Part shown: positions 1,563-37,802 of the stretch, one piece after another | Layout: each line of letters opens with the position of its first letter | Numbering within the stretch: the stretch's first letter is position 1 | DNA from: a virus | Lineage: Duplodnaviria > Caudoviricetes | IMG/VR virus record: IMGVR_UViG_3300027759_003166 | Strand: one strand, 5' to 3' | DNA length: 64,000 bases | Translations under genes and position numbers: made by a program | Notes under the pieces: generated by a model | Database searches by the model: none | The model's input: the letters and a program-made list of their open reading frames with translations, nothing else | Told to the model about the DNA's origin: nothing

Positions 1563-2446
1563 TGAAAGTTTATGATATGTTTTCATTCTATAATGAATTT
1601 GAAATTTTAGAAATAAGATTAAAAGAATTATGGGATACAGTAGATTATTTTGTATTAGTTGAGTCTAACACTACTTTTACAGGATTACCCAAGGAATACT
1701 TCTTTGAAAATAATAAAGAAAGATTTGCTCCATATTTAGAAAAAATTCGTCATATTAAACTTGATGACTCAATTGAGGAACAACGCAGAGTATTGCCTGG
1801 GCAAATAGATGATACCTGGGTACGTGAAAAATATCAACGTTACATAGCTTATAAAGAGCTATCAGATGTTTCTCCTGAGGATCTTTTGATAATCAGTGAT
1901 TGTGATGAAATACCACGTGCTGACATGATTGAAATGATCAAGGAGGATGAAAACGATTATGATCGTTATATCATATATATAGCTCAATTTAATTACAAAA
2001 TTAACTATATGAAAATACAACATCCTAGTAGCCATCCTGCAATTATAACTGTTAGAGGTCGTGTATTTACAAATCCTCAACAAGAAAGAGAATATTCATT
2101 CTATTGGAACCCAAAACCAAATAATACAATATCAGTACATCATGGCGGCTGGCACTTTACCTATTTTGGTAATGAAGATCATTGTTTGAACAAAATTAAA
2201 AGTTTTGCTCATACTGAACAAAATGTTGGAAAAATTGTTGATGAATATAATATTTCATGGATGATTCGAAACAAATACGGTCATGAAGGAATTAATAGTA
2301 AGCATAACGAAAGATTTGAGTATGTATTAGTTGATGACTATTTTCCTAAATGCATAACAGAAAATTTAGATAAGTGGGATCATATGATCATACCAGATGC
2401 GGTGTTCAGAGTTGATGACCTTTACAGAGAAAATGAAAAATATTAA
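1562..2446 (+). CDS. GT17 family glycosyltransferase, paralog 2
   Basis: VYDMFSFYNEFEILEIRL, SDCDEIPR, GGWHFTY and KIKSFAHTE, all matching paralog 1. Confidence 0.8.
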   Translation: MKVYDMFSFYNEFEILEIRLKELWDTVDYFVLVESNTTFTGLPKEYFFENNKERFAPYLEKIRHIKLDDSIEEQRRVLPGQIDDTWVREKYQRYIAYKELSDVSPEDLLIISDCDEIPRADMIEMIKEDENDYDRYIIYIAQFNYKINYMKIQHPSSHPAIITVRGRVFTNPQQEREYSFYWNPKPNNTISVHHGGWHFTYFGNEDHCLNKIKSFAHTEQNVGKIVDEYNISWMIRNKYGHEGINSKHNERFEYVLVDDYFPKCITENLDKWDHMIIPDAVFRVDDLYRENEKY

Positions 2447-3980: not shown

Positions 3981-4646
3981 ATGACAATAGAAATTAAATG
4001 GACAGGTGATTTAAATTCTCCAGATGGAGAAAAATTAATCGATGCCTTTAAACAAGCATATAGAATGAATCATAAATTATCTGATTTTGTATTGAATATG
4101 CGTGGAATGAGCGGTAAAAAATATAGAGTATTAATTAACACATTGATTGAAAACACGTCTGATGTTAGATATTTAGAAATAGGATCTTATAAAGGATCAA
4201 CCGCTTGTGCAGCAATCTATGGCAATGATGCAAAATTATCTTGTATTGATACATTCATATGGAGCTCTAGTCAAGAGCTAAAAGATAACATTGCTCTGGC
4301 TTCAACTAAAAATGTAGATTTTAAATTATTTGAGCAAGATTTTAGAACCATTGACTATTCTAACATTGGAAAATATAATGTATATATGTACGACGGCCCT
4401 CACGATGAGAGAGATCAGTTTGACGGAATTTTAATTGCACAACCAGCTTTGGAAGATAAATTTTTATTAATAGTTGATGATTGGAATGGGTCTCACGTGC
4501 AGAACGGTACAATAAATGCCATGAAATATCTAGGGTTAAATGTGTTAGCAAGCGTGGAGATTTTTTCACCCAACGAACCAATCACAGATGAAAAAAGTGA
4601 TTGGCATTTTGGATATTTCATAGGTTACGTTGAAAAATCTCAGTAA
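3981..4646 (+). CDS. Class I SAM-dependent methyltransferase, paralog of 2448-3188
   Basis: Shares SGKKYR, YLEIG, IGKYNVYMYDG, VDDWN and SDWHxGYFI with 2448-3188. Confidence 0.75.
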   Translation: MTIEIKWTGDLNSPDGEKLIDAFKQAYRMNHKLSDFVLNMRGMSGKKYRVLINTLIENTSDVRYLEIGSYKGSTACAAIYGNDAKLSCIDTFIWSSSQELKDNIALASTKNVDFKLFEQDFRTIDYSNIGKYNVYMYDGPHDERDQFDGILIAQPALEDKFLLIVDDWNGSHVQNGTINAMKYLGLNVLASVEIFSPNEPITDEKSDWHFGYFIGYVEKSQ

Positions 4647-7551: not shown

Positions 7552-7852
7552 CATGTGGAGAGGATGGTTTATTGGCAACTTTGAACCAACTGTATTAAAA
7601 ACTAAAGACTTTGAAGTAGGTATATTAACACACAAGAAAGATGAAGTATGGCCAGAACATTATCATGCCATTGCTACAGAATATAATGTATTAATAAGCG
7701 GGCACATGACAGTATGTGGAGAAGAACTACATTCTGGAGATATTTTTATTATAGAACCCAACGAAATAGCAAGACCTGTGTTCCATGAAGATTGTATAAT
7801 AGTATGTGTAAAAACACCAAGTGTACCAAAGGATAAGTATGAAGTTTTTTAG
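7529..7852 (+). CDS. Cupin (RmlC-like) protein
   Basis: RGWFIGNFEP, HYH...EYNVLISG and GDIFIIEP match the cupin motifs. Confidence 0.75.
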   Translation: MKIQKLDNMWRGWFIGNFEPTVLKTKDFEVGILTHKKDEVWPEHYHAIATEYNVLISGHMTVCGEELHSGDIFIIEPNEIARPVFHEDCIIVCVKTPSVPKDKYEVF

Positions 7853-9032
7853 AAACAGAGAAGAAATAGATATAAACAAATACTTCATAGCAACATATGT
7901 TATGAAATCGTCAACTTCACTTAAAGATGCTGCGTGGAATCTTGCTATAGGTCAAAGTGTAGGAAATCCTAGTGTTCGTAATGAATGGGAAACTGATGAC
8001 TTATTTGAAAATCACAGTTGTATCATTTTAGGTGATGAAAGCTATATGTCCACACAGATCTCGGGTATTGTAGAAATTGCATTTCCTGTAGCAAACATTG
8101 ATTGGGATACAGACGGAATTAGTCAACTTCTTTGCCACCTGATGGGAGGACAAGTTGATATTGATATTATTAAAAAATGTCGTTTGATAAAACTTGAATT
8201 GCCAAACAATGTTACTCAGCATTTTTTAGGTCCTAAATTTGGAATTACAGGTTTTAGACAATTCACAGGACAATACAATAAACCATTATTTGGTGGTATC
8301 ATTAAACCAAAGATTGGAGTTTCTCCAGAAGTATTGCTAGAAATGGTTAAGCAAATGGTCGATGGTGGAGTTGATTTTATTAAAGAAGATGAAATCATGA
8401 GCAATCCCGTATGTGCTCCATTGGAACATAGGGTAGACATGATTGCTAACTATCTAGCCAAACAAAGTCGTAAAGTTGTATTCTGTCACACCATTAATGC
8501 AGATCCACATATTATTATAGACCGTGTTAAGCGTGTACATGAGTTAGGTGGTAATGGAGTTCACGTTAATGTGTTTAGTGGAATTGGTGTGTATAATAGT
8601 ATTCGCAAATTAGATCTACCTTTATATCTACATTATCAAAGTAGCGGAGCGAAATTACTAACTGATGTAAATCACAGGTTTAGTATTAGTTGGCCAGTAA
8701 TGTGCCAGTTAGCAACACTAATGGGTGTTGATACTATACAAACTGGCATGGTTGGAGGATATAGTAATGATGATCCAGTGGAGATTAAAGAATGTTTAGA
8801 AATATTAAGAGCAGGTAATACTGTGCCTGCACTTAGTTGTGGAATGCATCCCGGATTAGTTAATAAGGTCACCGAACTTGCAGGGTTAGATTATTTGGCC
8901 AATGCAGGTGGAGCAGTTCATGGTCACCCTGGCGGTACAGTTGCAGGTGCGCGAGCCATGAGACAAGCAATAGATAAAACGCATAATACAGAATATGATC
9001 AAGCAATTAACAAATGGGGATTAATAATATGA
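7839..9032 (+). CDS. RuBisCO-like protein (form IV, RLP)
   Basis: IKPKIG (K175/K177), GGVDFIKEDE (K201/D203/E204), LSCG and AGGAVHGHP. The R295, H327 and K334 equivalents are replaced, so it is not a true carboxylase. Confidence 0.9.
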   Translation: MKFFRNREEIDINKYFIATYVMKSSTSLKDAAWNLAIGQSVGNPSVRNEWETDDLFENHSCIILGDESYMSTQISGIVEIAFPVANIDWDTDGISQLLCHLMGGQVDIDIIKKCRLIKLELPNNVTQHFLGPKFGITGFRQFTGQYNKPLFGGIIKPKIGVSPEVLLEMVKQMVDGGVDFIKEDEIMSNPVCAPLEHRVDMIANYLAKQSRKVVFCHTINADPHIIIDRVKRVHELGGNGVHVNVFSGIGVYNSIRKLDLPLYLHYQSSGAKLLTDVNHRFSISWPVMCQLATLMGVDTIQTGMVGGYSNDDPVEIKECLEILRAGNTVPALSCGMHPGLVNKVTELAGLDYLANAGGAVHGHPGGTVAGARAMRQAIDKTHNTEYDQAINKWGLII

Positions 9033-18954: not shown

Positions 18955-19626
18955 TTATACTACTTCTGGAAACAATACTTCACGTACAAATCTCTTGATA
19001 ACAGGTTCTGCCACACCCATGCTAACCATACTGCGTATAACATGTGGATTCTGCTTTTGATAGTGACAATAACGATTCTGCGCCATATGATAATCCGCTG
19101 CATCTTGCTGCGTATTTCCTACGTTTTTTACATAATAATCTAAACTATCCAGGGCTAATTGACATAAATCGTCGAGTTCTTTGCCTTCTTGTACATTACC
19201 CGCAGCAACCATGTTATCGCTAAAGATGTTACGTGCCCATTCTGGAAGTTCTCTAGACTTTTGCCATCCGTATTTTTTAGTCTCAATACCAAACCAACGC
19301 ATCATGTCATGGTTAGAATCACCTGCCGAACTGAAATCACAGAAAGCACCTGTGATCTTATTAGGGCCACATACAGCATCAAATCCCCAAATTGGACTTG
19401 GATCGTTAAAATGTGGGAATATGGTACAATGTAATATATAGATTTTGTGAGTTTCTCTATTATCTACAATTTCTATATGTGCTCTACGATAACGCGGACT
19501 TGACCAAAGTTGATTATGCCAGTTATAGTCTGTGCCCACGGTGCTATCTATAGGTTCACCTGTAGTATTGAATCGATCTTCAATCTGTTTGGCTAATTGC
19601 TCAATTTTGTTCCAAACTACTGTCAT
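18955..19626 (-). CDS. pcyX: Ferredoxin-dependent bilin reductase (PcyX/PcyA-like)
   Basis: RRAHIE, ILHCTIFP, WGFDAV and QNRYCHYQKQN, matching the PcyA family pattern. It lies directly behind a heme oxygenase. Confidence 0.8.
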   Translation of the reverse strand: MTVVWNKIEQLAKQIEDRFNTTGEPIDSTVGTDYNWHNQLWSSPRYRRAHIEIVDNRETHKIYILHCTIFPHFNDPSPIWGFDAVCGPNKITGAFCDFSSAGDSNHDMMRWFGIETKKYGWQKSRELPEWARNIFSDNMVAAGNVQEGKELDDLCQLALDSLDYYVKNVGNTQQDAADYHMAQNRYCHYQKQNPHVIRSMVSMGVAEPVIKRFVREVLFPEVV

Positions 19627-20146
19627 ATGATTCCATTATTTTAATTGCCCATTCAAAGGCTATATTGGCTTCAACAGCCATATCGTCTGACAACATGGTA
19701 CGTACAGTTTTAATTAACTCGGCACGATCTTCAAACTCTAAATGTGTATGTGGTGCTTCAACAATCTTCTTGATCATTTGTCCACCATGCAAGTCACCCA
19801 TATGCCATGTATAAAGATGTGCCATAACACGAGTAGGATCACCTAATGTTCGTATATAACTAACATACTCTTTGGTCACTTCTTTATAGGTATTGAAACT
19901 GCCTACAGGTTTATCCATGGATTCGTAGTCATCCATGATTAATCCTGCACGTTCAAAGCCCGGCGGCAATGCATTTAACAATCCTGCTTTACGAGCAGCA
20001 TGTTCAATTTCTTTATACCAAAGTTGTTTTTGATATGTAAAGTCTACCCATACATCATAGGGTAGAGTTTTGGCAAATACCGCTTTCATAAAAAGGGTAT
20101 CTTCCGCTTTTTGATGTTTATCAGCGGTTAAATCTTTTAGGCTCAT
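19601..20146 (-). CDS. hemO: Heme oxygenase
   Basis: LKDLTADKHQKAE (proximal His) and AHLYTWHMGDLHGGQMI (distal helix). Confidence 0.85.
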   Translation of the reverse strand: MSLKDLTADKHQKAEDTLFMKAVFAKTLPYDVWVDFTYQKQLWYKEIEHAARKAGLLNALPPGFERAGLIMDDYESMDKPVGSFNTYKEVTKEYVSYIRTLGDPTRVMAHLYTWHMGDLHGGQMIKKIVEAPHTHLEFEDRAELIKTVRTMLSDDMAVEANIAFEWAIKIMESYDSSLEQN

Positions 20147-20155
20147 AGTAGTTCC

Positions 20156-20461
20156 TTATTCGGGTTCTACTTTAATTATCAAAGGATACCCCTGTGCTCT
20201 GGCTAAATTGGTTCCGTCAACAGCTTTTTGTTCTGCTACTTCAAAACTATAAATTCCTGCCACAGCACTACCTTTATTATGTATTGCCAGAGTTAATGCA
20301 ATAGCAGACTTTTCATTATGCTTGAATATTGACACAAGCATGGCAATTACAAATTCCACAGAAGTTTGATCATCATTACACACAATGACTTTATACTTGC
20401 TGGGTTCTTTAAGTTTGGCAGTAGTCTTAGACTTTTTGTCTACAATGATATCAGTGGTCAT
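20156..20461 (-). CDS. clpS: ATP-dependent Clp protease adaptor ClpS
   Basis: YKVIVCNDDQTSVEFVI, IHNKGSA...FEVAEQK and YPL. Confidence 0.9.
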   Translation of the reverse strand: MTTDIIVDKKSKTTAKLKEPSKYKVIVCNDDQTSVEFVIAMLVSIFKHNEKSAIALTLAIHNKGSAVAGIYSFEVAEQKAVDGTNLARAQGYPLIIKVEPE

Positions 20462-20477
20462 AATCTTATTTTATAGA

Positions 20478-20493
20478 GGGGGCCGAAGCCCCC
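20478..20493 (-). terminator. GC hairpin with UUCG loop between hsp20 and clpS (terminator or stabilising stem)
   Basis: GGGGGC-TTCG-GCCCCC on the minus strand, with only a weak U tract. Confidence 0.5.
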
Positions 20494-20498
20494 AAACT

Positions 20499-20933
20499 TT
20501 ATTCGCCCTTGAGTTTAAGGACACGTGGTTTCAAAGCATCAGGAACGATACGCTTTAATTTAATGGTAAGCACACCATTCTTGATAGTTCCATCTCCAAC
20601 TTCCATATGTTCAGCTAATGTCCAGCTACGTGTAAAGTCTCGGAATGCAAGTCCACGATGTAAAAATTCAGCAGTTACATCATTGCTTTTATCTCGAATG
20701 CCTTTGACAATGAGTTGATTTTGATCAATCTCAACTGTAACTTCGTCCTTAGCAAACCCTGTAACAGCAATTTCAATCTCGTAAGAGGTGTCGTCGTGTT
20801 TAATAATGTTGTAAGGGGGATAGTTGTCTTTAAGTTGATTTGCAAAACGATGTTCAAAATCTTCAAACATTGTATCAAATCCCAGAAGTGCTCTGTTGAG
20901 AGCGTTGGTGTCGAAACGAGTTAATTGTGTCAT
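20499..20933 (-). CDS. Small heat shock protein Hsp20 (IbpA-like)
   Basis: YPPYNI, IEIAVTGF, FLHRGLAFRDF and NGVLTI. Confidence 0.93.
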   Translation of the reverse strand: MTQLTRFDTNALNRALLGFDTMFEDFEHRFANQLKDNYPPYNIIKHDDTSYEIEIAVTGFAKDEVTVEIDQNQLIVKGIRDKSNDVTAEFLHRGLAFRDFTRSWTLAEHMEVGDGTIKNGVLTIKLKRIVPDALKPRVLKLKGE

Positions 20934-21017
20934 AATTTTTCTCCTTTAAAAGTAAGACAATTTTGGGCACTATGCCCTAAAGTGGGACCCTTAATAGGTG
21001 TCCCACAATATTATTTA
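20934..21017 (-). promoter_or_regulatory. TAAATA promoter plus a three-hairpin ROSE-like thermometer leader of hsp20
   Basis: GTGGGAC/GTCCCAC stem, GGGCA-TAG-TGCCC stem, then TCTTACTT pairing with the SD AAGGAGA. Confidence 0.55.
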
Positions 21018-22919
21018 TTATACAGTCTCTTGAACGTCGGCTGCAACCACGCCATCTTCCGCATCTTTTTTAGCCTGTTCTTCAGCTTTTTTAGCTGCTT
21101 CTTCGGCTTCGTGCTTCTTGGCTGTAATTGGACCCATTGCTTGATAAAGTTTTGGAACGCTGTCTTGAATGATTTTAGGATCATCACCTTTGATAGCATC
21201 ACGAATTGCCTGTGCTGCATCGTCGGCATTGGCCTTTTCTTCTTCAGTAACTTGATCACCAAACTTATCAATATCTGCTTGGAATTCATTTAGGGTAGAT
21301 TCTGCGCTATTACGTGCTTCAATAAGCTCACGTAGTTTCTTATCTGATTCGGCATTAGCTTCGGCGTCTTGAACCATACGTTCAATTTCGTCTTTGCTAA
21401 GTCCGCTATCGGATTTGATAGTGATCTTATTTTCTTGGCCGGTGCCTTGATCCTTGGCACTAATATTCATAATACCATTGGCGTCAATATCCAAAGTAAC
21501 TTCAATTTGCGGAGTACCTTTACGTGCTGGAGGAATTCCACTTAATTTAAATTCACCAAGCAATTTATTGTATTGAACAAAATCACGCTCTCCCTGGAAT
21601 ACTTTAATATCCACAGCAGGTTGATTGTCTTCGGCTGTACTAAACACTTGACTATGTTTGGTAGGAATGGTTGTATTCTTTTGAATCAACTTAGCCATTA
21701 CACCGCCCTGTGTTTCAATACCAAGACTTAGTGGAGTAACGTCCAGCAATAGAACGTCTGTACGTCCACCACCTAATACGTCACCCTGGATAGCAGCACC
21801 AGCGGCAACTGCTTCGTCTGGGTTAACATCCTTACGTGGTGCCTTGCCGAATAGTTTCTCAACTGTTTCGATAACCTTAGGCATACGTGTCATACCACCG
21901 ACTAAGATAACTTCGTCGATGTCGCTGGCAGTAACACCTGCATCTGCCATAGCAGTTTTGCAAGGCTCAATACTACGTTGGATCAACTCGTCAACAAGCT
22001 GTTCCAACTTCGCACGAGTGATCTTAACATTCATATGTTTAGGACCACTTGCGTCTGCTGTGATGTAAGGCAAGTTAACATCTGTTTGTGCTGAACTTGA
22101 CAATTCAATCTTAGCTTTCTCAGCAGCTTCTTTCAAACGCTGGAGTGCCAACATATCCTTCTTAAGATCAACGCCGTTGTCTTTCTTGAATTCATCGACC
22201 AAGAAATCCATAATACGTTGGTCAAAGTCTTCACCACCTAAGAATGTATCACCGTTAGTAGATAGAACTTCAATTTGTTTGTCGCCATCAACGTTGGCAA
22301 TTTCAATAATAGATACGTCAAATGTACCACCACCTAGGTCATAGACAGCAATCTTACGATCACGCTTGTCTGCTTTATCCATACCATAGGCAAGAGCAGC
22401 GGCAGTTGGTTCGTTGATAATACGTAGAACTTCAAGTCCTGCGATTTTACCAGCATCTTTAGTTGCTTGACGTTGCTGGTCATTGAAGTAAGCAGGTACG
22501 GTAATAACTGCCTGTGTAACTTCATGTCCAAGATAGTCTTCAGCTGTGAGTTTCATCTTACGAAGAACTTCGGCTGAAATTTGTGGAGGGGCAAGTTCTT
22601 GATCATTTGCACTAACCCAAGCATCACCATTGCTGGCTTCGATGATTTTGTAGGGCATTAGATCAATGTCCTTCTGCACAGCTTGTTCTTTAAACTTACG
22701 TCCAATTAGACGCTTGGCTGCATAGATTGTATTTTTTGGATTAGTAACTGCCTGGCGTTTTGCACTGGCACCTACAAGGATTTCATCGTTAGCATAGGCA
22801 ATAATACTAGGAGTAGTTCTTGCACCTTCGCTGTTTTCGATTACTTTGGGGATACCGTTTTCAATAACGGCTACACATGAATTGGTTGTACCGAGATCGA
22901 TACCGATTACTTTACTCAT
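21018..22919 (-). CDS. dnaK: Chaperone DnaK (Hsp70)
   Basis: [25 protein letters not shown] and GGMTRMP. Confidence 0.97.
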
Positions 22920-23002
22920 TATTTCTCCTTTGATTAAGTAAGATTTTTTTGGGCACTATGCCCGATAAGATATCCAATATAGGTATATCGTGCATTTATT
23001 TA
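22920..23002 (-). promoter_or_regulatory. TAAATA promoter plus a ROSE-like thermometer leader of dnaK
   Basis: Same GGGCATAGTGCCC hairpin and TCTTACTT/AAGGAGA anti-SD stem as upstream of hsp20. Confidence 0.55.
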
Positions 23003-23013
23003 TTATAGATAGA

Positions 23014-23292
23014 TCATGTATCTGTGTCAACATGATCGGCAGCTTTTGCTACATTTTTCATTATTTCTATATATTTTTTACTACTCTGCTCCGAATCAAA
23101 ATTGGATATCCTTTGTTCACCTAATGTTTTTAACATTGGATGAATTAACTTTTCTGTGATCCTACGACTCATATTTTCTAAAACCGTGTCTATGTCTTCG
23201 CCCTGGGCAATTTTTTGCATAGCACGACCTGTTTCAAACATTTGAACACGACCGGCCCATGACTCCATAGACTCACCGGGTTTAATTTTCAT
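23014..23292 (-). CDS. Stand-alone glutamyl-tRNA reductase dimerisation-domain-like protein
   Basis: ETGRAMQKIAQGEDIDTVLENMSRRITEKLIHP resembles the HemA C-terminal E..RA...L..G.D...VL..L...LTNKLLH.P. Confidence 0.6.
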   Translation of the reverse strand: MKIKPGESMESWAGRVQMFETGRAMQKIAQGEDIDTVLENMSRRITEKLIHPMLKTLGEQRISNFDSEQSSKKYIEIMKNVAKAADHVDTDT

Positions 23293-24098
23293 TACAAATC
23301 AAATACCAATGTACTAGTAATCTTAGGGGTAGGCATAGGTTCCACATCCATACTTAGTAGATCACCTACCACACGGCTGCGATTCTTGACATTGGTTTGC
23401 CCGAGAACAACTACTCCAAATAATTCTTTATTCTTTTCCACTAGCATAAGCACACAGCGTCCTGCCGGATTGGTAAATCCAGTTTTGCTGATTAGAATAT
23501 TATCGTAGACGAATATATCCGGATTGGTATTTCGTATATTAATATGAATTACTTTTTTACCTCGAGGAATATTCAATACAGCATTACGTTCGTTGGCTAT
23601 TTTTCTAATCACTGGTTCGTCTTTGATTTTATACAAGAACTCAATAAGTTCACGGGCTGTACTCTTATTACCTTCTTTAAGACCTGTGCTATCTACAATT
23701 GTAGTATTTTCTAATGTAATATCTTTGACATAGTTATTGACATCTGACAAGAATTTATCAAAGCCGCCCGGATGATGATAGGCTAATGTTTCTGCTGCTC
23801 TGTTATCACTGCTGATTATCATTGATCGCATTAGATCCATACGAGTCATGTATACACCTCTGGGTACATGACCTTTGCTCCGACCGTCAACAAATATCTT
23901 CTCGTTAAGATCCGCACCACTACGTATCACAGTTATAGCTGTGAATAATTTTGTAATGCTGGCAATGCTGCGTACTTCCATATGGTTGTATCTCACAGCA
24001 TACATGGCTGCGTTATAATCATAAAGGGCATAGGATCCAGTTTCTCCGTATGCCGACAAGGACATTAACATTGAAAGTATAATAAAGAGTTTTTTCAT
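23292..24098 (-). CDS. Peptidase S11 D-Ala-D-Ala endo/carboxypeptidase (PBP7-like)
   Basis: Signal peptide, SITK (SxxK), SDN (SxN) and KTG. Confidence 0.9.
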   Translation of the reverse strand: MKKLFIILSMLMSLSAYGETGSYALYDYNAAMYAVRYNHMEVRSIASITKLFTAITVIRSGADLNEKIFVDGRSKGHVPRGVYMTRMDLMRSMIISSDNRAAETLAYHHPGGFDKFLSDVNNYVKDITLENTTIVDSTGLKEGNKSTARELIEFLYKIKDEPVIRKIANERNAVLNIPRGKKVIHINIRNTNPDIFVYDNILISKTGFTNPAGRCVLMLVEKNKELFGVVVLGQTNVKNRSRVVGDLLSMDVEPMPTPKITSTLVFDL

Positions 24099-24310
24099 AT
24101 TGAGTATTTAAGTGCAAAAAAAGTAGCGAATTTTTCAGTATTGAATGCAAAGATAGCATGTCGAGGCCTAGGTGAGTCTGTTATAGTAAATTCAGTAGAG
24201 CTCACATAAGTAAACTCAAAGTCTATACCTTGTATCATACCTTGCTGTCTAAGTTCTCTAACTATTTCCATAGTTCTTTGGGCATCTATGTATAAGGTAA
24301 CGGTCTTCAA
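24095..24310 (-). CDS. Small phage protein, F-x-L-[RK]-[WY]-S family
   Basis: C-terminus ATFFALKYSI; translationally coupled array member. Confidence 0.6.
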   Translation of the reverse strand: MKTVTLYIDAQRTMEIVRELRQQGMIQGIDFEFTYVSSTEFTITDSPRPRHAIFAFNTEKFATFFALKYSI

Positions 24311-31088: not shown

Positions 31089-31322
31089 TTAATACATCTT
31101 TTTGGGTAATTGCTGGTCACGTAGCTTTTTACGCCAGCGGGCTTTGGCTGCACCTTTGGCTCTTTTTCGGACAGTTGTAGGTTTTTCGTAGAATTCTTTG
31201 GCTCGATAGTCGTCCAAAAGTCCAGAATCTTCCACCTTTTGTTTTAGTTTTCTTAATGCTACGGCTATGGGTAGATCGCCAACAATAACTTTATTTCCGA
31301 ATACTCTATTTGGTTTGCTCAT
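31089..31322 (-). CDS. rpsU: 30S ribosomal protein S21
   Basis: [15 protein letters not shown]...[15 protein letters not shown]. Confidence 0.9.
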
Positions 31323-32538
31323 TTTTATTCTTATCAAAAATCATAATGGCCGACTCGCCATTCACAGTATTCTTACTTATCCGAATTAATGATAAACCGC
31401 GTTCTACAAGTTCAACAGCGTCAAATTGATAGGGCAATAATATCTTTTCAATGATATTTTTCAATCCACGAGCATTAGTTTTAAGTTCTTTAGCCTTGGC
31501 AGCAATTTCCTTTAGTGCATCTTTCTCAAATTCTAATTTAATACTGTCTAATTTAAACATATATTGATATTGTTTAACTGGACTGTTCTTTGTTTCTAAT
31601 AAAATTTCTACAAGTTGTTCTTCTGTAAGTTCATCTACATTAATAATAAGTCCAAAGCGTCCAACAAATTCAGGTATCAACCCATATTTAATTAAGTCTT
31701 TAGTATTCAAATCTTTATAAACAGCATTGCTATCTTCCTTGGTGTCTACATTAGCATGAAATCCCACTGATCTGGCATCTGTACGTTGTTTAATAATTTT
31801 ATCAATGCCCACAAATGCACCGCCACAAATAAACAATATACCGCGTGTATCAATCTCCTGCATTTCACCACCAGGATGTTTACGTTTACTAGTAGCAGGT
31901 ATACGCATAATGCTACCTTCAATCATTTTTAACAATGCTTGCTGTACACCTTCGCCGCTAACATCTCTGGTAATACTAGTGCTTTCACCTTTCTTGGCAA
32001 TTTTATCAATTTCATCAATGTAAACAATACCACGAGAGGCTTTTTCAAGATCTCCATCTGCTTCACTGATTAAACGTGTAAGAATACTTTCTACATCATC
32101 ACCAACATATCCCGCTTCAGTGATACCAGTAGCATCACAAATAGCAAAGGGAAGATCTAAGTAATCGGCGATCTTACGTGCCATCATAGTTTTGCCACAT
32201 CCTGTAGGACCTAGCATAAGCACATTAGTCTTTTCAATCTCTATATCGGGACTAGGATTGTTAATACGTTTGAAGTGTTGACTAACTGCTACACTAAGAG
32301 CAATCTTAGCATCTTCTTGTCCTATTACATAGTCGTCAAGATAATCTTTAATCTTAACAGGATTTAATAGTTTGGCCTGTTCGGTTGGCGCTTTGATTTT
32401 TTCATCAACTAAAATGTCATTGCAGAGATTAACACAGTCATTGCATATGGCTGCGTGTTCACCTACAATTAATTTTTCAACATCTTCTTTACTTTTTCCG
32501 CAAAAGTCACAGGAGTGATGATCTTTAAGTTTTGTCAT
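31306..32538 (-). CDS. clpX: ATP-dependent Clp protease ATPase ClpX
   Basis: Zn finger CDFC...[35 protein letters not shown] loop and VGF loop. Confidence 0.95.
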
Positions 32539-37201: not shown

Positions 37202-37204
37202 GAT

Positions 37205-37226
37205 AAAGAAACCCGCCGAAGCGGGT
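37205..37226 (-). terminator. Rho-independent terminator after tmRNA
   Basis: ACCCGC-TTCG-GCGGGT-TTCTTT; identical to 42325-42346. Confidence 0.85.
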
Positions 37227-37229
37227 CCT

Positions 37230-37478
37230 TGGTTGTTTTGGTAATAAGGTATTTCCTACCTCACCTTAGCCTCAAGCGGCTATGGAATATAAACTATCGT
37301 TTGCCTTTAGTTTGATTTGCTTGATTTACGGTCATCGCCTACCGAGTTGCCGTCGCTGACTATTTGCCCAATCGATTACCAGAGCACCCCCACCTAAATA
37401 TAAATTATACACTTAGGTGGAGGTGGCCGGATTCGAACCGGCGTCTTGAACACATCATCTTTGAAGGGATTACAACTA
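37230..37478 (-). ncRNA. ssrA: Circularly permuted (two-piece) tmRNA
   Basis: Minus-strand order: acceptor piece ending GCCGG-TTCGAAT-CCGGC-CACCTCC-A-CC (to 37416), a 24-nt spacer, then a coding piece starting GGGGGTG (37391). G3-U70 pair present. Tag ORF 37304-37272 reads ANDSLYSIAA*. Confidence 0.88.
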
Positions 37479-37487
37479 TTCTTTTAT

Positions 37488-37802
37488 TTAACGCTGAAAG
37501 CAATTACGCTCACGATAAATTTGTCCATCTGGAGTCTGGATCTCTTTCCAATCAGTACAAACAGTTGTGGGTTGTTGAACAATCACAGGACGTTGAACAA
37601 CTACCGGTTGTTGTTGCACTACGGTTTGAGGTTGATTAGCATTGGCAATAACGGCTCCTGCAATTCCACCGAGTATCAACGGACCTACCCAATCATTGTT
37701 GCGTTCAACAATGACAGTACGTTCTGGATAACGATGATGCCATTGGGCGTTTGCTGCCGTGGCTGCTACCAACATAGTAATTACCAATACAAGTTTTTTC
37801 AT
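37488..37802 (-). CDS. Secreted hypothetical protein with a glycine-zipper-like segment
   Basis: Signal peptide, GPLILGGIAGAVIA, a QP-rich linker and two Cys. Confidence 0.7.
   Translation of the reverse strand: MKKLVLVITMLVAATAANAQWHHRYPERTVIVERNNDWVGPLILGGIAGAVIANANQPQTVVQQQPVVVQRPVIVQQPTTVCTDWKEIQTPDGQIYRERNCFQR

Follow-up and report, generated by a model that had tools for sequence, protein, structure and literature searches.

How does a phage that encodes its own chaperones control their synthesis? The question is raised by the window analysed here (the whole stretch of viral DNA under study, 64 kb), which comes from a giant lake-water phage in which one type of three-hairpin RNA leader precedes both the phage's own dnaK and its own hsp20. 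The two genes and their leaders are arranged as follows:

20499..20933, minus strand: hsp20, encoding a small heat-shock protein (sHsp) of 144 aa (Pfam HSP20, E 3e-15)
20934-21022, minus strand: hsp20 leader, made up of a box, hairpins H1 and H2, an A-rich linker and hairpin H3
21018..22919, minus strand: dnaK, encoding an Hsp70 of 633 aa (Pfam HSP70, E 3e-255)
22920-23030, minus strand: dnaK leader, made up of a promoter-like box, H1, H2, an A-rich linker and H3

The neighbouring genes on the minus strand encode ClpS, a heme oxygenase and a bilin reductase downstream of the hsp20/dnaK pair, and an S11 peptidase upstream of it.

When aligned block by block on the gene strand, both leaders contain a common 12-mer, TATAATAAATAA, followed by H1, H2, the A-rich linker, the anti-SD sequence UCUUACUU, the SD sequence AAGGAGA and the AUG, which bears out the statement of the initial annotation that the two 5' leaders (20934-21017 and 22920-23002 in that annotation) have the same layout. 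In both of them, 3 or 5 nt separate UCUUACUU from AAGGAGA and a further 4-6 nt lead to the AUG. The TAAATA with which the annotation began each leader is indeed present in both, but it forms part of a promoter-like ATAAATA/TATAAT box and probably lies outside the RNA. The hairpins occupy these positions:

22969..22989, minus strand: H1 of the dnaK leader, reading GAUAU, bulged A (22984), CC, 6-nt loop, GG, AUAUC, from the MFE fold
22951..22963, minus strand: H2 of the dnaK leader, GGGCA-UAG-UGCCC, followed by an A-run, from the MFE fold
22917..22943, minus strand: H3 and start of dnaK, with the anti-SD UCUUACUU at 22943-22936, a bulged A at 22939, the loop AAUCA, the SD AAGGAGA at 22930-22924 and the AUG at 22919-22917, from the MFE fold
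20982..21006, minus strand: H1 of the hsp20 leader, reading GUGGGAC, bulged A (20999), CC, 6-nt loop, GG, GUCCCAC, a 7-bp stem, folded and aligned to the covariance model R1 described below
20965..20977, minus strand: H2 of the hsp20 leader, GGGCAUAGUGCCC, GGGCA-UAG-UGCCC, the same 13 nt as in the dnaK leader
20931..20957, minus strand: H3 and start of hsp20, with the anti-SD UCUUACUU at 20957-20950, a bulged A at 20953, the loop UUA, the SD AAGGAGA at 20946-20940 and the AUG at 20933-20931

The stem of H1 differs in sequence between the two copies in the window, and its inner part (bulged A, CC, 6-nt loop, GG) is the same in both. The GGGCA-TAG-TGCCC hairpin was correctly described as identical in the two leaders, since this 13-nt H2 sequence occurs at just two sites in the 64-kb window, one in each leader; the composite pattern of anti-SD, SD and start codon is likewise found in the window at these two leaders only. 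As for H3, the proposed register of anti-SD/SD pairing coincides with the MFE fold of the dnaK leader, and also with that of both isolated H3 hairpins at 25 C and below. Additionally, UGUC (20959-20956) in the hsp20 leader is able to pair with the GACA of codons 1-2.

Whether the resemblance between the two leaders reflects a wider family was addressed in IMG/VR, where 243 relatives of the window's DnaK were found and 80 of their loci were taken for study. The dnaK genes of nearly all of these 80 viral loci are preceded by the same kind of leader; 107 distinct leaders were parsed from the relatives, and 108 distinct leaders enter the alignment and folding counts. A covariance model, R1, built from 53 two-hairpin leaders of related phages with the window sequences excluded, matched only the two leaders in the 64-kb window, over the full model length (38.0 and 37.9 bits, E ~5e-7; next best E 2.1). 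Applied to the 80 related viral contigs (733 kb), R1 found 146 sites, all of them on the gene strand and immediately before dnaK, hsp20 or groES, and a pattern scan of the same loci yielded 149 sites, again all on the gene strand and directly before dnaK, an Hsp20 of 140-149 aa or a GroES of 95 aa; Pfam confirms the gene families downstream of the leader sites in the relatives. An unbiased scan of IMG/VR for the H3 motif in its A-bulged form, as found in the window, returned 36 sites before dnaK, hsp20 or groES, 32 of which also have an A-bulged H1. The same scan returned 30 sites before other ORFs, which are read as chance matches because the H1 of the leader is absent there (no H1-like hairpin in 26 of the 30, and an A bulge in none). 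The two leaders in the window are thus copies of a single conserved, structured element specific to the chaperone genes of phages. A DNA search of cultured phages found no close relative, the sole similarity being that of dnaK at 65-70%; R1 gave weaker matches in two cultured phages, Pelagibacter phage HTVC115P (19.1 bits) and Synechococcus phage ACG-2014f (15.6 bits), in each case before hsp20.

Does the element act as RNA? A MAFFT alignment of the 108 leaders proved unusable in the hairpins, and a model-based alignment was used instead. In this alignment, eight of the nine pairs of H1 change on both sides and 94% of the cells are paired, with a covariation score of 0.402 as against 0.128 for shuffled sequence and no more than 0.10 for slid partners. 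Beneath the H1 bulge, 67 leaders have a U.G pair and 30 a C-G pair, and this wobble, together with the one-sided bulge, argues for an RNA structure on the gene strand and not for a DNA palindrome. Of 107 related leaders, 46 have an H2, in which GC and AU pairs replace one another in a compensatory manner; two separate clades share an identical H2 (GGGCAUAGUGCCC). These observations bear directly on the idea that the leaders are elements of the DNA or of transcription, such as a CIRCE-like operator palindrome, an attenuator or a terminator. The position of the hairpins immediately 3' of promoter-like boxes and the GC-rich nature of H2 would suit such an element, which is nonetheless highly improbable: the stems vary freely in sequence yet stay complementary, the commonest pair under the bulge (U.G) and the asymmetric bulge would be mismatches in a DNA palindrome, and many of the hsp20 copies lie between cistrons without a promoter. 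A role for H2 as a terminator was rejected, as it is followed by an A-run and not by a U-run, and no terminator was called on the gene strand.

H3 behaves differently from the other hairpins in the search for covariation across related phages that the annotation had proposed, so that this check succeeded for H1 (strongly) and for H2 (compensations) but detected no covariation in H3, both strands of which are invariant. The annotation had also made its reading depend on conservation of the anti-SD pairing in homologous leaders, and the anti-SD and the SD indeed remain invariant in the 108 distinct leaders, while the loop between them varies from 2 to 6 nt. The sole variation in H3 consists of a change from U.G to C-G (CUCGCUU, CUCACUU), of G or A at the bulge and of the first U, and it fits the ROSE pattern U(U/C)GCU. 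Covariation cannot prove a pairing whose two strands do not vary; SD pairing in H3 is instead suggested by a conserved non-coding 7-mer complementary to the SD, by the freely varying loop and by the precedent of ROSE elements. In single-sequence MFE folds, the anti-SD pairs with the SD in 71 of the 108 leaders.

What kind of RNA element is this, then? Classical ROSE elements have several hairpins, with a U(U/C)GCU sequence and a bulged G masking the SD, and are found on sHsp genes (summarised in PMC3669281 and PMC11182007). The two-hairpin, ROSE-like leaders of Pseudomonas ibpA are proven thermometers in which hairpin II alone suffices (Krajewski, Nagel and Narberhaus 2013, PMC3669281): this hairpin melts with temperature, full repression also requires hairpin I, which remains folded, deletion of the bulged G locks the switch, and G-C clamps are important in the SD hairpin (PMC3669281). 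Like a ROSE element, each phage leader adjoins a heat-shock gene and carries the SD in the 3'-most of its hairpins, here the third, at 4-6 nt before the AUG. H1, compared with the 107 parsed leaders, has the features of a ROSE hairpin I, namely a stable stem, a bulged purine above U.G or C-G and a CC..GG top, and the consensus hairpin I of ROSE_3 carries the GAU-G-CC...GG-GUC bulge motif, as does the phage H1. Most relatives carry the canonical ROSE motif UCUUGCUU, CUCGCUU also occurs, and 60 of 107 related leaders have UUGCU or UCGCU. Both leaders of the window have UUACU with a bulged A in place of the U(U/C)GCU with a bulged G that defines ROSE. The A opposite the SD, which the annotation had taken for a variant of the bulged G, is therefore a real one in this lineage, given the UCUUGCUU and CUCGCUU of the relatives.

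Searches with models support this kinship in both directions, at scores below threshold. Leaders of the relatives match the Rfam ROSE_3 model at 38.6, 32.9 and 32.4 bits (E 7e-6 to 8e-3; gathering score 43 bits), and conversely R1 gives 26.9 bits with a true ROSE_3, one that lies before an IbpA-like gene in a Pseudomonadales genome and reaches 77 bits with its own model. The sole match to the classical ROSE models is that of one relative to ROSE_2, at 22.4 bits against a gathering score of 65, and a search for ROSE_3 in named control genomes gave no match. The leaders of the window itself, when searched with the Rfam ROSE models as the annotation had advised, match none of them at E up to 10, a 116-nt search included, because of their extra, inserted hairpin and of the A in both bulges. 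Their weak matches to other Rfam families, preQ1-II (19 bits) and freshwater-2 (21 bits), stem from the AAAGGAGAAA..AUG tail and from a generic hairpin and were taken as chance. The description of the leaders as ROSE-like thus stands as kinship to the short ROSE_3 type, but it does not extend to recognition of the window copies by any Rfam ROSE model; on sequence grounds, they are best classed as a ROSE_3 variant, with A for G in both bulges and an extra GC hairpin, and not as strict members of ROSE_3.

The comparison with the Pseudomonas ibpA ROSE_3 (RF02523) can be made part by part. Both are 5' leaders of a small heat-shock gene; both have a stable hairpin I with the U.G, bulged purine and CC..GG motif; and in both, the last hairpin would join AGGAG to an anti-SD of the U(U/C)GCU type in an imperfect helix that has one bulged purine, the AUG lying outside the core helix. 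In contrast, the window has A and not G in both bulges, a third, GC-rich hairpin between the other two, and no G-C clamps round the SD helix, H3 being ~4-5 kcal/mol weaker; moreover, its element is carried by a phage and stands on dnaK as well as on hsp20, and in relatives also on groES. The classical ROSE elements of rhizobia and of E. coli ibpA (RF00435; ROSE_2, RF01832) share the arrangement of several hairpins with the SD masked in the 3' one, on sHsp genes, and use U(U/C)GCU with a bulged G as their motif, but they are longer, with three to four hairpins, the last of which also holds the AUG.

From this kinship we consider it fairly probable that each leader is an element of the short ROSE (ROSE_3-like) type that controls, in cis, the translation of the phage's own dnaK or hsp20 mRNA, with H3 melting on warming. 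H3 would pair UCUUACUU with the SD AAGGAGA through seven weak pairs that include one U.G, a single purine being bulged out, and in its folded state would limit 30S binding; warming would melt H3 and free translation. H1 and the extra GC hairpin of this lineage, H2, would serve as stable 5' scaffolds that prevent mispairing of H3, and they probably also protect the 5' end of the mRNA.

The predicted energies of H3 set the range over which such a switch could work. By nearest-neighbour calculation, the isolated H3 of dnaK has -5.2, -3.8, -2.4 and -0.8 kcal/mol at 5, 15, 25 and 37 C, and that of hsp20 has -3.1 kcal/mol at 15 C and -0.4 at 37 C, as compared with -6.5 kcal/mol at 25 C and -4.0 at 42 C for a true bacterial ROSE_3 hairpin. 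The stability of the phage H3 at 5-15 C is thus similar to that of the bacterial hairpin at 37-45 C and, if H3 is a thermometer, its switching range should be cold, at about lake temperatures. Relative to shuffled sequence, the isolated H3 regions have no excess stability (z -0.04 and +0.11). The melting profiles called for by the annotation gave a divided answer. For leaders ending at the AUG, the predicted probability that AGGAG is unpaired increases on warming, being 0.02-0.04 at 5 C and 0.27-0.30 at 45 C, similarly to a true ROSE_3, but when 15 nt of coding sequence are included, the anti-SD is predicted to pair with early codons and the SD to be 0.74-0.86 open whatever the temperature. 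Pairing of the anti-SD with dnaK codons 2-4 (UUACUU/GAGUAA) was rejected as a conserved feature, as other clades start with AUGUCU or have a mismatching codon. Nearest-neighbour models ignore non-canonical pairs, and ROSE thermometers are reported to contain such pairs (PMC11182007).

In these models, the weakness of H3 fits either a switch tuned to a cold lake or a weak constitutive damper. According to the latter explanation, the 5' hairpins stabilise the mRNA and H3 merely damps translation or sets its rate, with no physiologically relevant response to temperature; both the marginal energies of H3 and the SD that is predicted to be mostly open in the presence of coding sequence agree with this, as does the mRNA-stabilising role suggested for hairpin I by Krajewski et al. 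(PMC3669281). We nevertheless regard a constitutive leader as unlikely, for it would have no need to keep an imperfect anti-SD invariant and its bulge conserved, the element stands on heat-shock chaperone genes only and not on clpX, clpS or other nearby genes, and its nearest relatives are proven thermometers.

The identity of the bulged bases raises a further possibility. H1 and H3 share an inner motif, in which a pyrimidine, a bulged purine and C-Y are paired to R-G-G, and the bulged base agrees between the two hairpins in 105 of 107 leaders (AA in 47, GG in 58, AG in 2 and GA in 0). Where one contig carries both a dnaK and an hsp20 leader, the two have the same type of bulge in 42 of 43 cases; on the DnaK tree, at least two origins are required for the A type. 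These regularities, along with the identity of the H2 sequence in two separate clades, would be in line with recognition of the leader by a factor acting in trans, be it an RNA-binding protein of phage or host, S1 with the 30S, or a small RNA; this factor would read the bulged-purine motif (Y, bulged R, C-Y / R-G-G) of H1 and H3, and possibly H2, so that the switch would depend on it and not be purely thermal. We think this rather doubtful. After phylogenetic control of the H1-H3 agreement, two independent contrasts are left, a number with which a sign test cannot reach significance, and the agreement is accordingly not significant; no candidate factor was found, and the Pseudomonas ROSE_3 functions in E. 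coli and, in vitro, with the 30S alone (PMC3669281). The matching bulges are thus suggestive, and they leave room for a trans-acting reader. A more elaborate proposal, which we offer as speculation and hold to be a little less probable still, is that the leaders are a two-site switch and not a plain thermometer: one partner from the phage or the host would act in trans and read the matching H1 and H3 bulges, all A or all G per genome across the dnaK, hsp20 and groES leaders, and giant freshwater phages would in this way possess a private chaperone regulon, independent of sigma-32, whose type co-evolves with the partner.

Control of translation by the leaders would operate on transcripts whose putative promoters can be placed as follows:

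23002..23030, minus strand: candidate dnaK promoter, TTGACA-17-TATAAT, with 12/12 sigma-70 matches, the only perfect site in 3.3 kb
21011..21022, minus strand: TATAATAAATAA box of the hsp20 leader, with TATAAT at 21022-21017, overlapping the dnaK stop codon at 21020-21018

In the dnaK leader, the common 12-mer TATAATAAATAA is the -10 part of the perfect TTGACA-17-TATAAT, and this -10 overlaps AATAAATA (23004-22997), a match to the T4-type late-promoter motif. No -35 box was found for the hsp20 box, which may be a promoter, or hsp20 may be cotranscribed with dnaK. The T4-type late promoter, TATAAATA, depends on gp55 and needs no -35 box, its NATAAATA box preceding the transcript start by a few nt. 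A T4-type late-promoter motif is present in both leaders of the window, dnaK having the perfect sigma-70-type site as well. Among the relatives, AUAAAUA precedes the H1 bulge by 9-15 nt in 55 of 58 dnaK leaders and in 12 of 46 hsp20 leaders, and a sigma-70 -35 box is found in just 7 of the 58 dnaK leaders. This distribution would fit a T4-type late promoter for dnaK, with hsp20 often cotranscribed. An exactly matching contig of 896 nt from one lake metatranscriptome library covers 20833-21728, a span that takes in the 3' part of dnaK, the hsp20 leader and the beginning of hsp20; it does not prove a single transcript. The contigs of four RNA libraries, a kind of data that cannot show transcript starts, give no cover over 22954-24200.

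Where did the leaders come from? The closest cellular DnaK proteins are those of Burkholderiales and other beta- and gamma-proteobacteria (64-74% identity), and the betaproteobacterial-type tmRNA in the window points to the same kind of host as this DnaK kinship. R1 detected no leader at the 80 closest bacterial dnaK loci, so the dnaK leader was not acquired with the gene from those bacteria. A search of 4 whole bacterial genomes and 151 Burkholderiales genomes with R1 also gave no match, a result that, with no positive control, is uninformative on hosts. On the simplest reading, a ROSE-type sHsp leader would have spread within phages to dnaK and groES.

The annotation's suggestion that such control had no earlier description for phage chaperone genes holds as far as full-text literature searches reach, which found no ROSE-like element described on phage or phage chaperone genes. 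The phage thermometers known in a 2024 paper are those of lambda cIII, SPbeta blyA and a gut Caudoviricetes sigma-70 leader (PMC11182007). These are likewise phage 5' leaders in which structure controls translation with temperature, but they are fourU-type or alternative structures, none being ROSE-like and none standing on a chaperone gene (PMC11182007).

Taken as ROSE-like elements, the leaders indicate that the phage probably tunes its chaperone synthesis at the level of translation. If they are temperature-responsive, large aquatic phages would bring with them their own post-transcriptional heat-shock control of Hsp70, sHsp and GroES, independent of the host sigma-32 and tuned to cold water. 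ROSE-type control would then extend from the small heat-shock genes of bacteria to a chaperone regulon of phages, and the A bulge, the added hairpin and the very weak SD helix would be natural variants with which to dissect how the bulge sets the melting point.

Both ROSE-like leaders of the window carry a bulged purine in their 5' hairpin (H1) and another in the 3' hairpin predicted to pair the anti-SD with the SD (H3), at the following positions:

H1 20999 and H3 20953 (-), hsp20 leader
H1 22984 and H3 22939 (-), dnaK leader

Across the 107 leaders of the window and the related viral loci L002-L081, the H1 and H3 bulge bases are the same in 105 (AA 47, GG 58, AG 2, GA 0), an agreement that is not significant because only two independent contrasts remain. 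The dnaK and hsp20 leaders of a same contig were concordant in bulge type in 42 of 43 cases, and the A type has at least two origins on the DnaK tree. One 6-kb viral contig, L046, bears a single hsp20 leader and gene twice in inverted orientation (1951-2009 (+) and 4001-4059 (-)), most likely an assembly fold-back artefact.

In several relatives, the hsp20 leader contains a GUCAU box immediately 5' of the anti-SD that is complementary to the start-codon sequence AUGAC:

L015, 5866-5956, hsp20 leader with GUCAU box
L016, 5906-5973, hsp20 leader with GUCAU box
L056, 5879-5969, hsp20 leader with GUCAU box

This complementarity predicts a lengthened H3 in which the AUG is masked too, similar to classical long ROSE elements. 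The window hsp20 has a 4-bp counterpart of this pairing, UGUC with GACA.

Near dnaK and hsp20 lie two phage-encoded Clp genes:

31306-32538 (-), ClpX (zinc finger and AAA domain)
20156-20461 (-), ClpS

A search of the window with R1, the covariance model built from 53 two-hairpin leaders of related phages, found no ROSE-like leader on either gene. In the gap that separates the end of hsp20 from the start of clpS, GGGGGCUUCGGCCCCC (20478-20493) forms a perfect GC hairpin that lacks a U-run on the gene strand and possibly acts in processing or stability.

Further genes and ORFs of this phage, whose chaperone and tmRNA genes look proteobacterial, are the following:

7821-9032 (+), RuBisCO-large-chain-like ORF (Pfam E 1e-36)
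18955-20146 (-), heme oxygenase and ferredoxin-dependent bilin reductase pair
23014-23292 (-), 92-aa ORF matching the glutamyl-tRNA reductase dimerisation domain (Pfam E 3e-7)
37204-37527 (-), betaproteobacterial-type tmRNA gene (Rfam RF01850, 149.9 bits)

The 92-aa ORF lies directly upstream of the dnaK promoter, and its domain match is an odd one for a phage also bearing heme and bilin genes. The tmRNA gene is also matched by the permuted-tmRNA model, and ARAGORN made no tmRNA call at this locus. Together with the DnaK relatives, the tmRNA type hints at a betaproteobacterial host.
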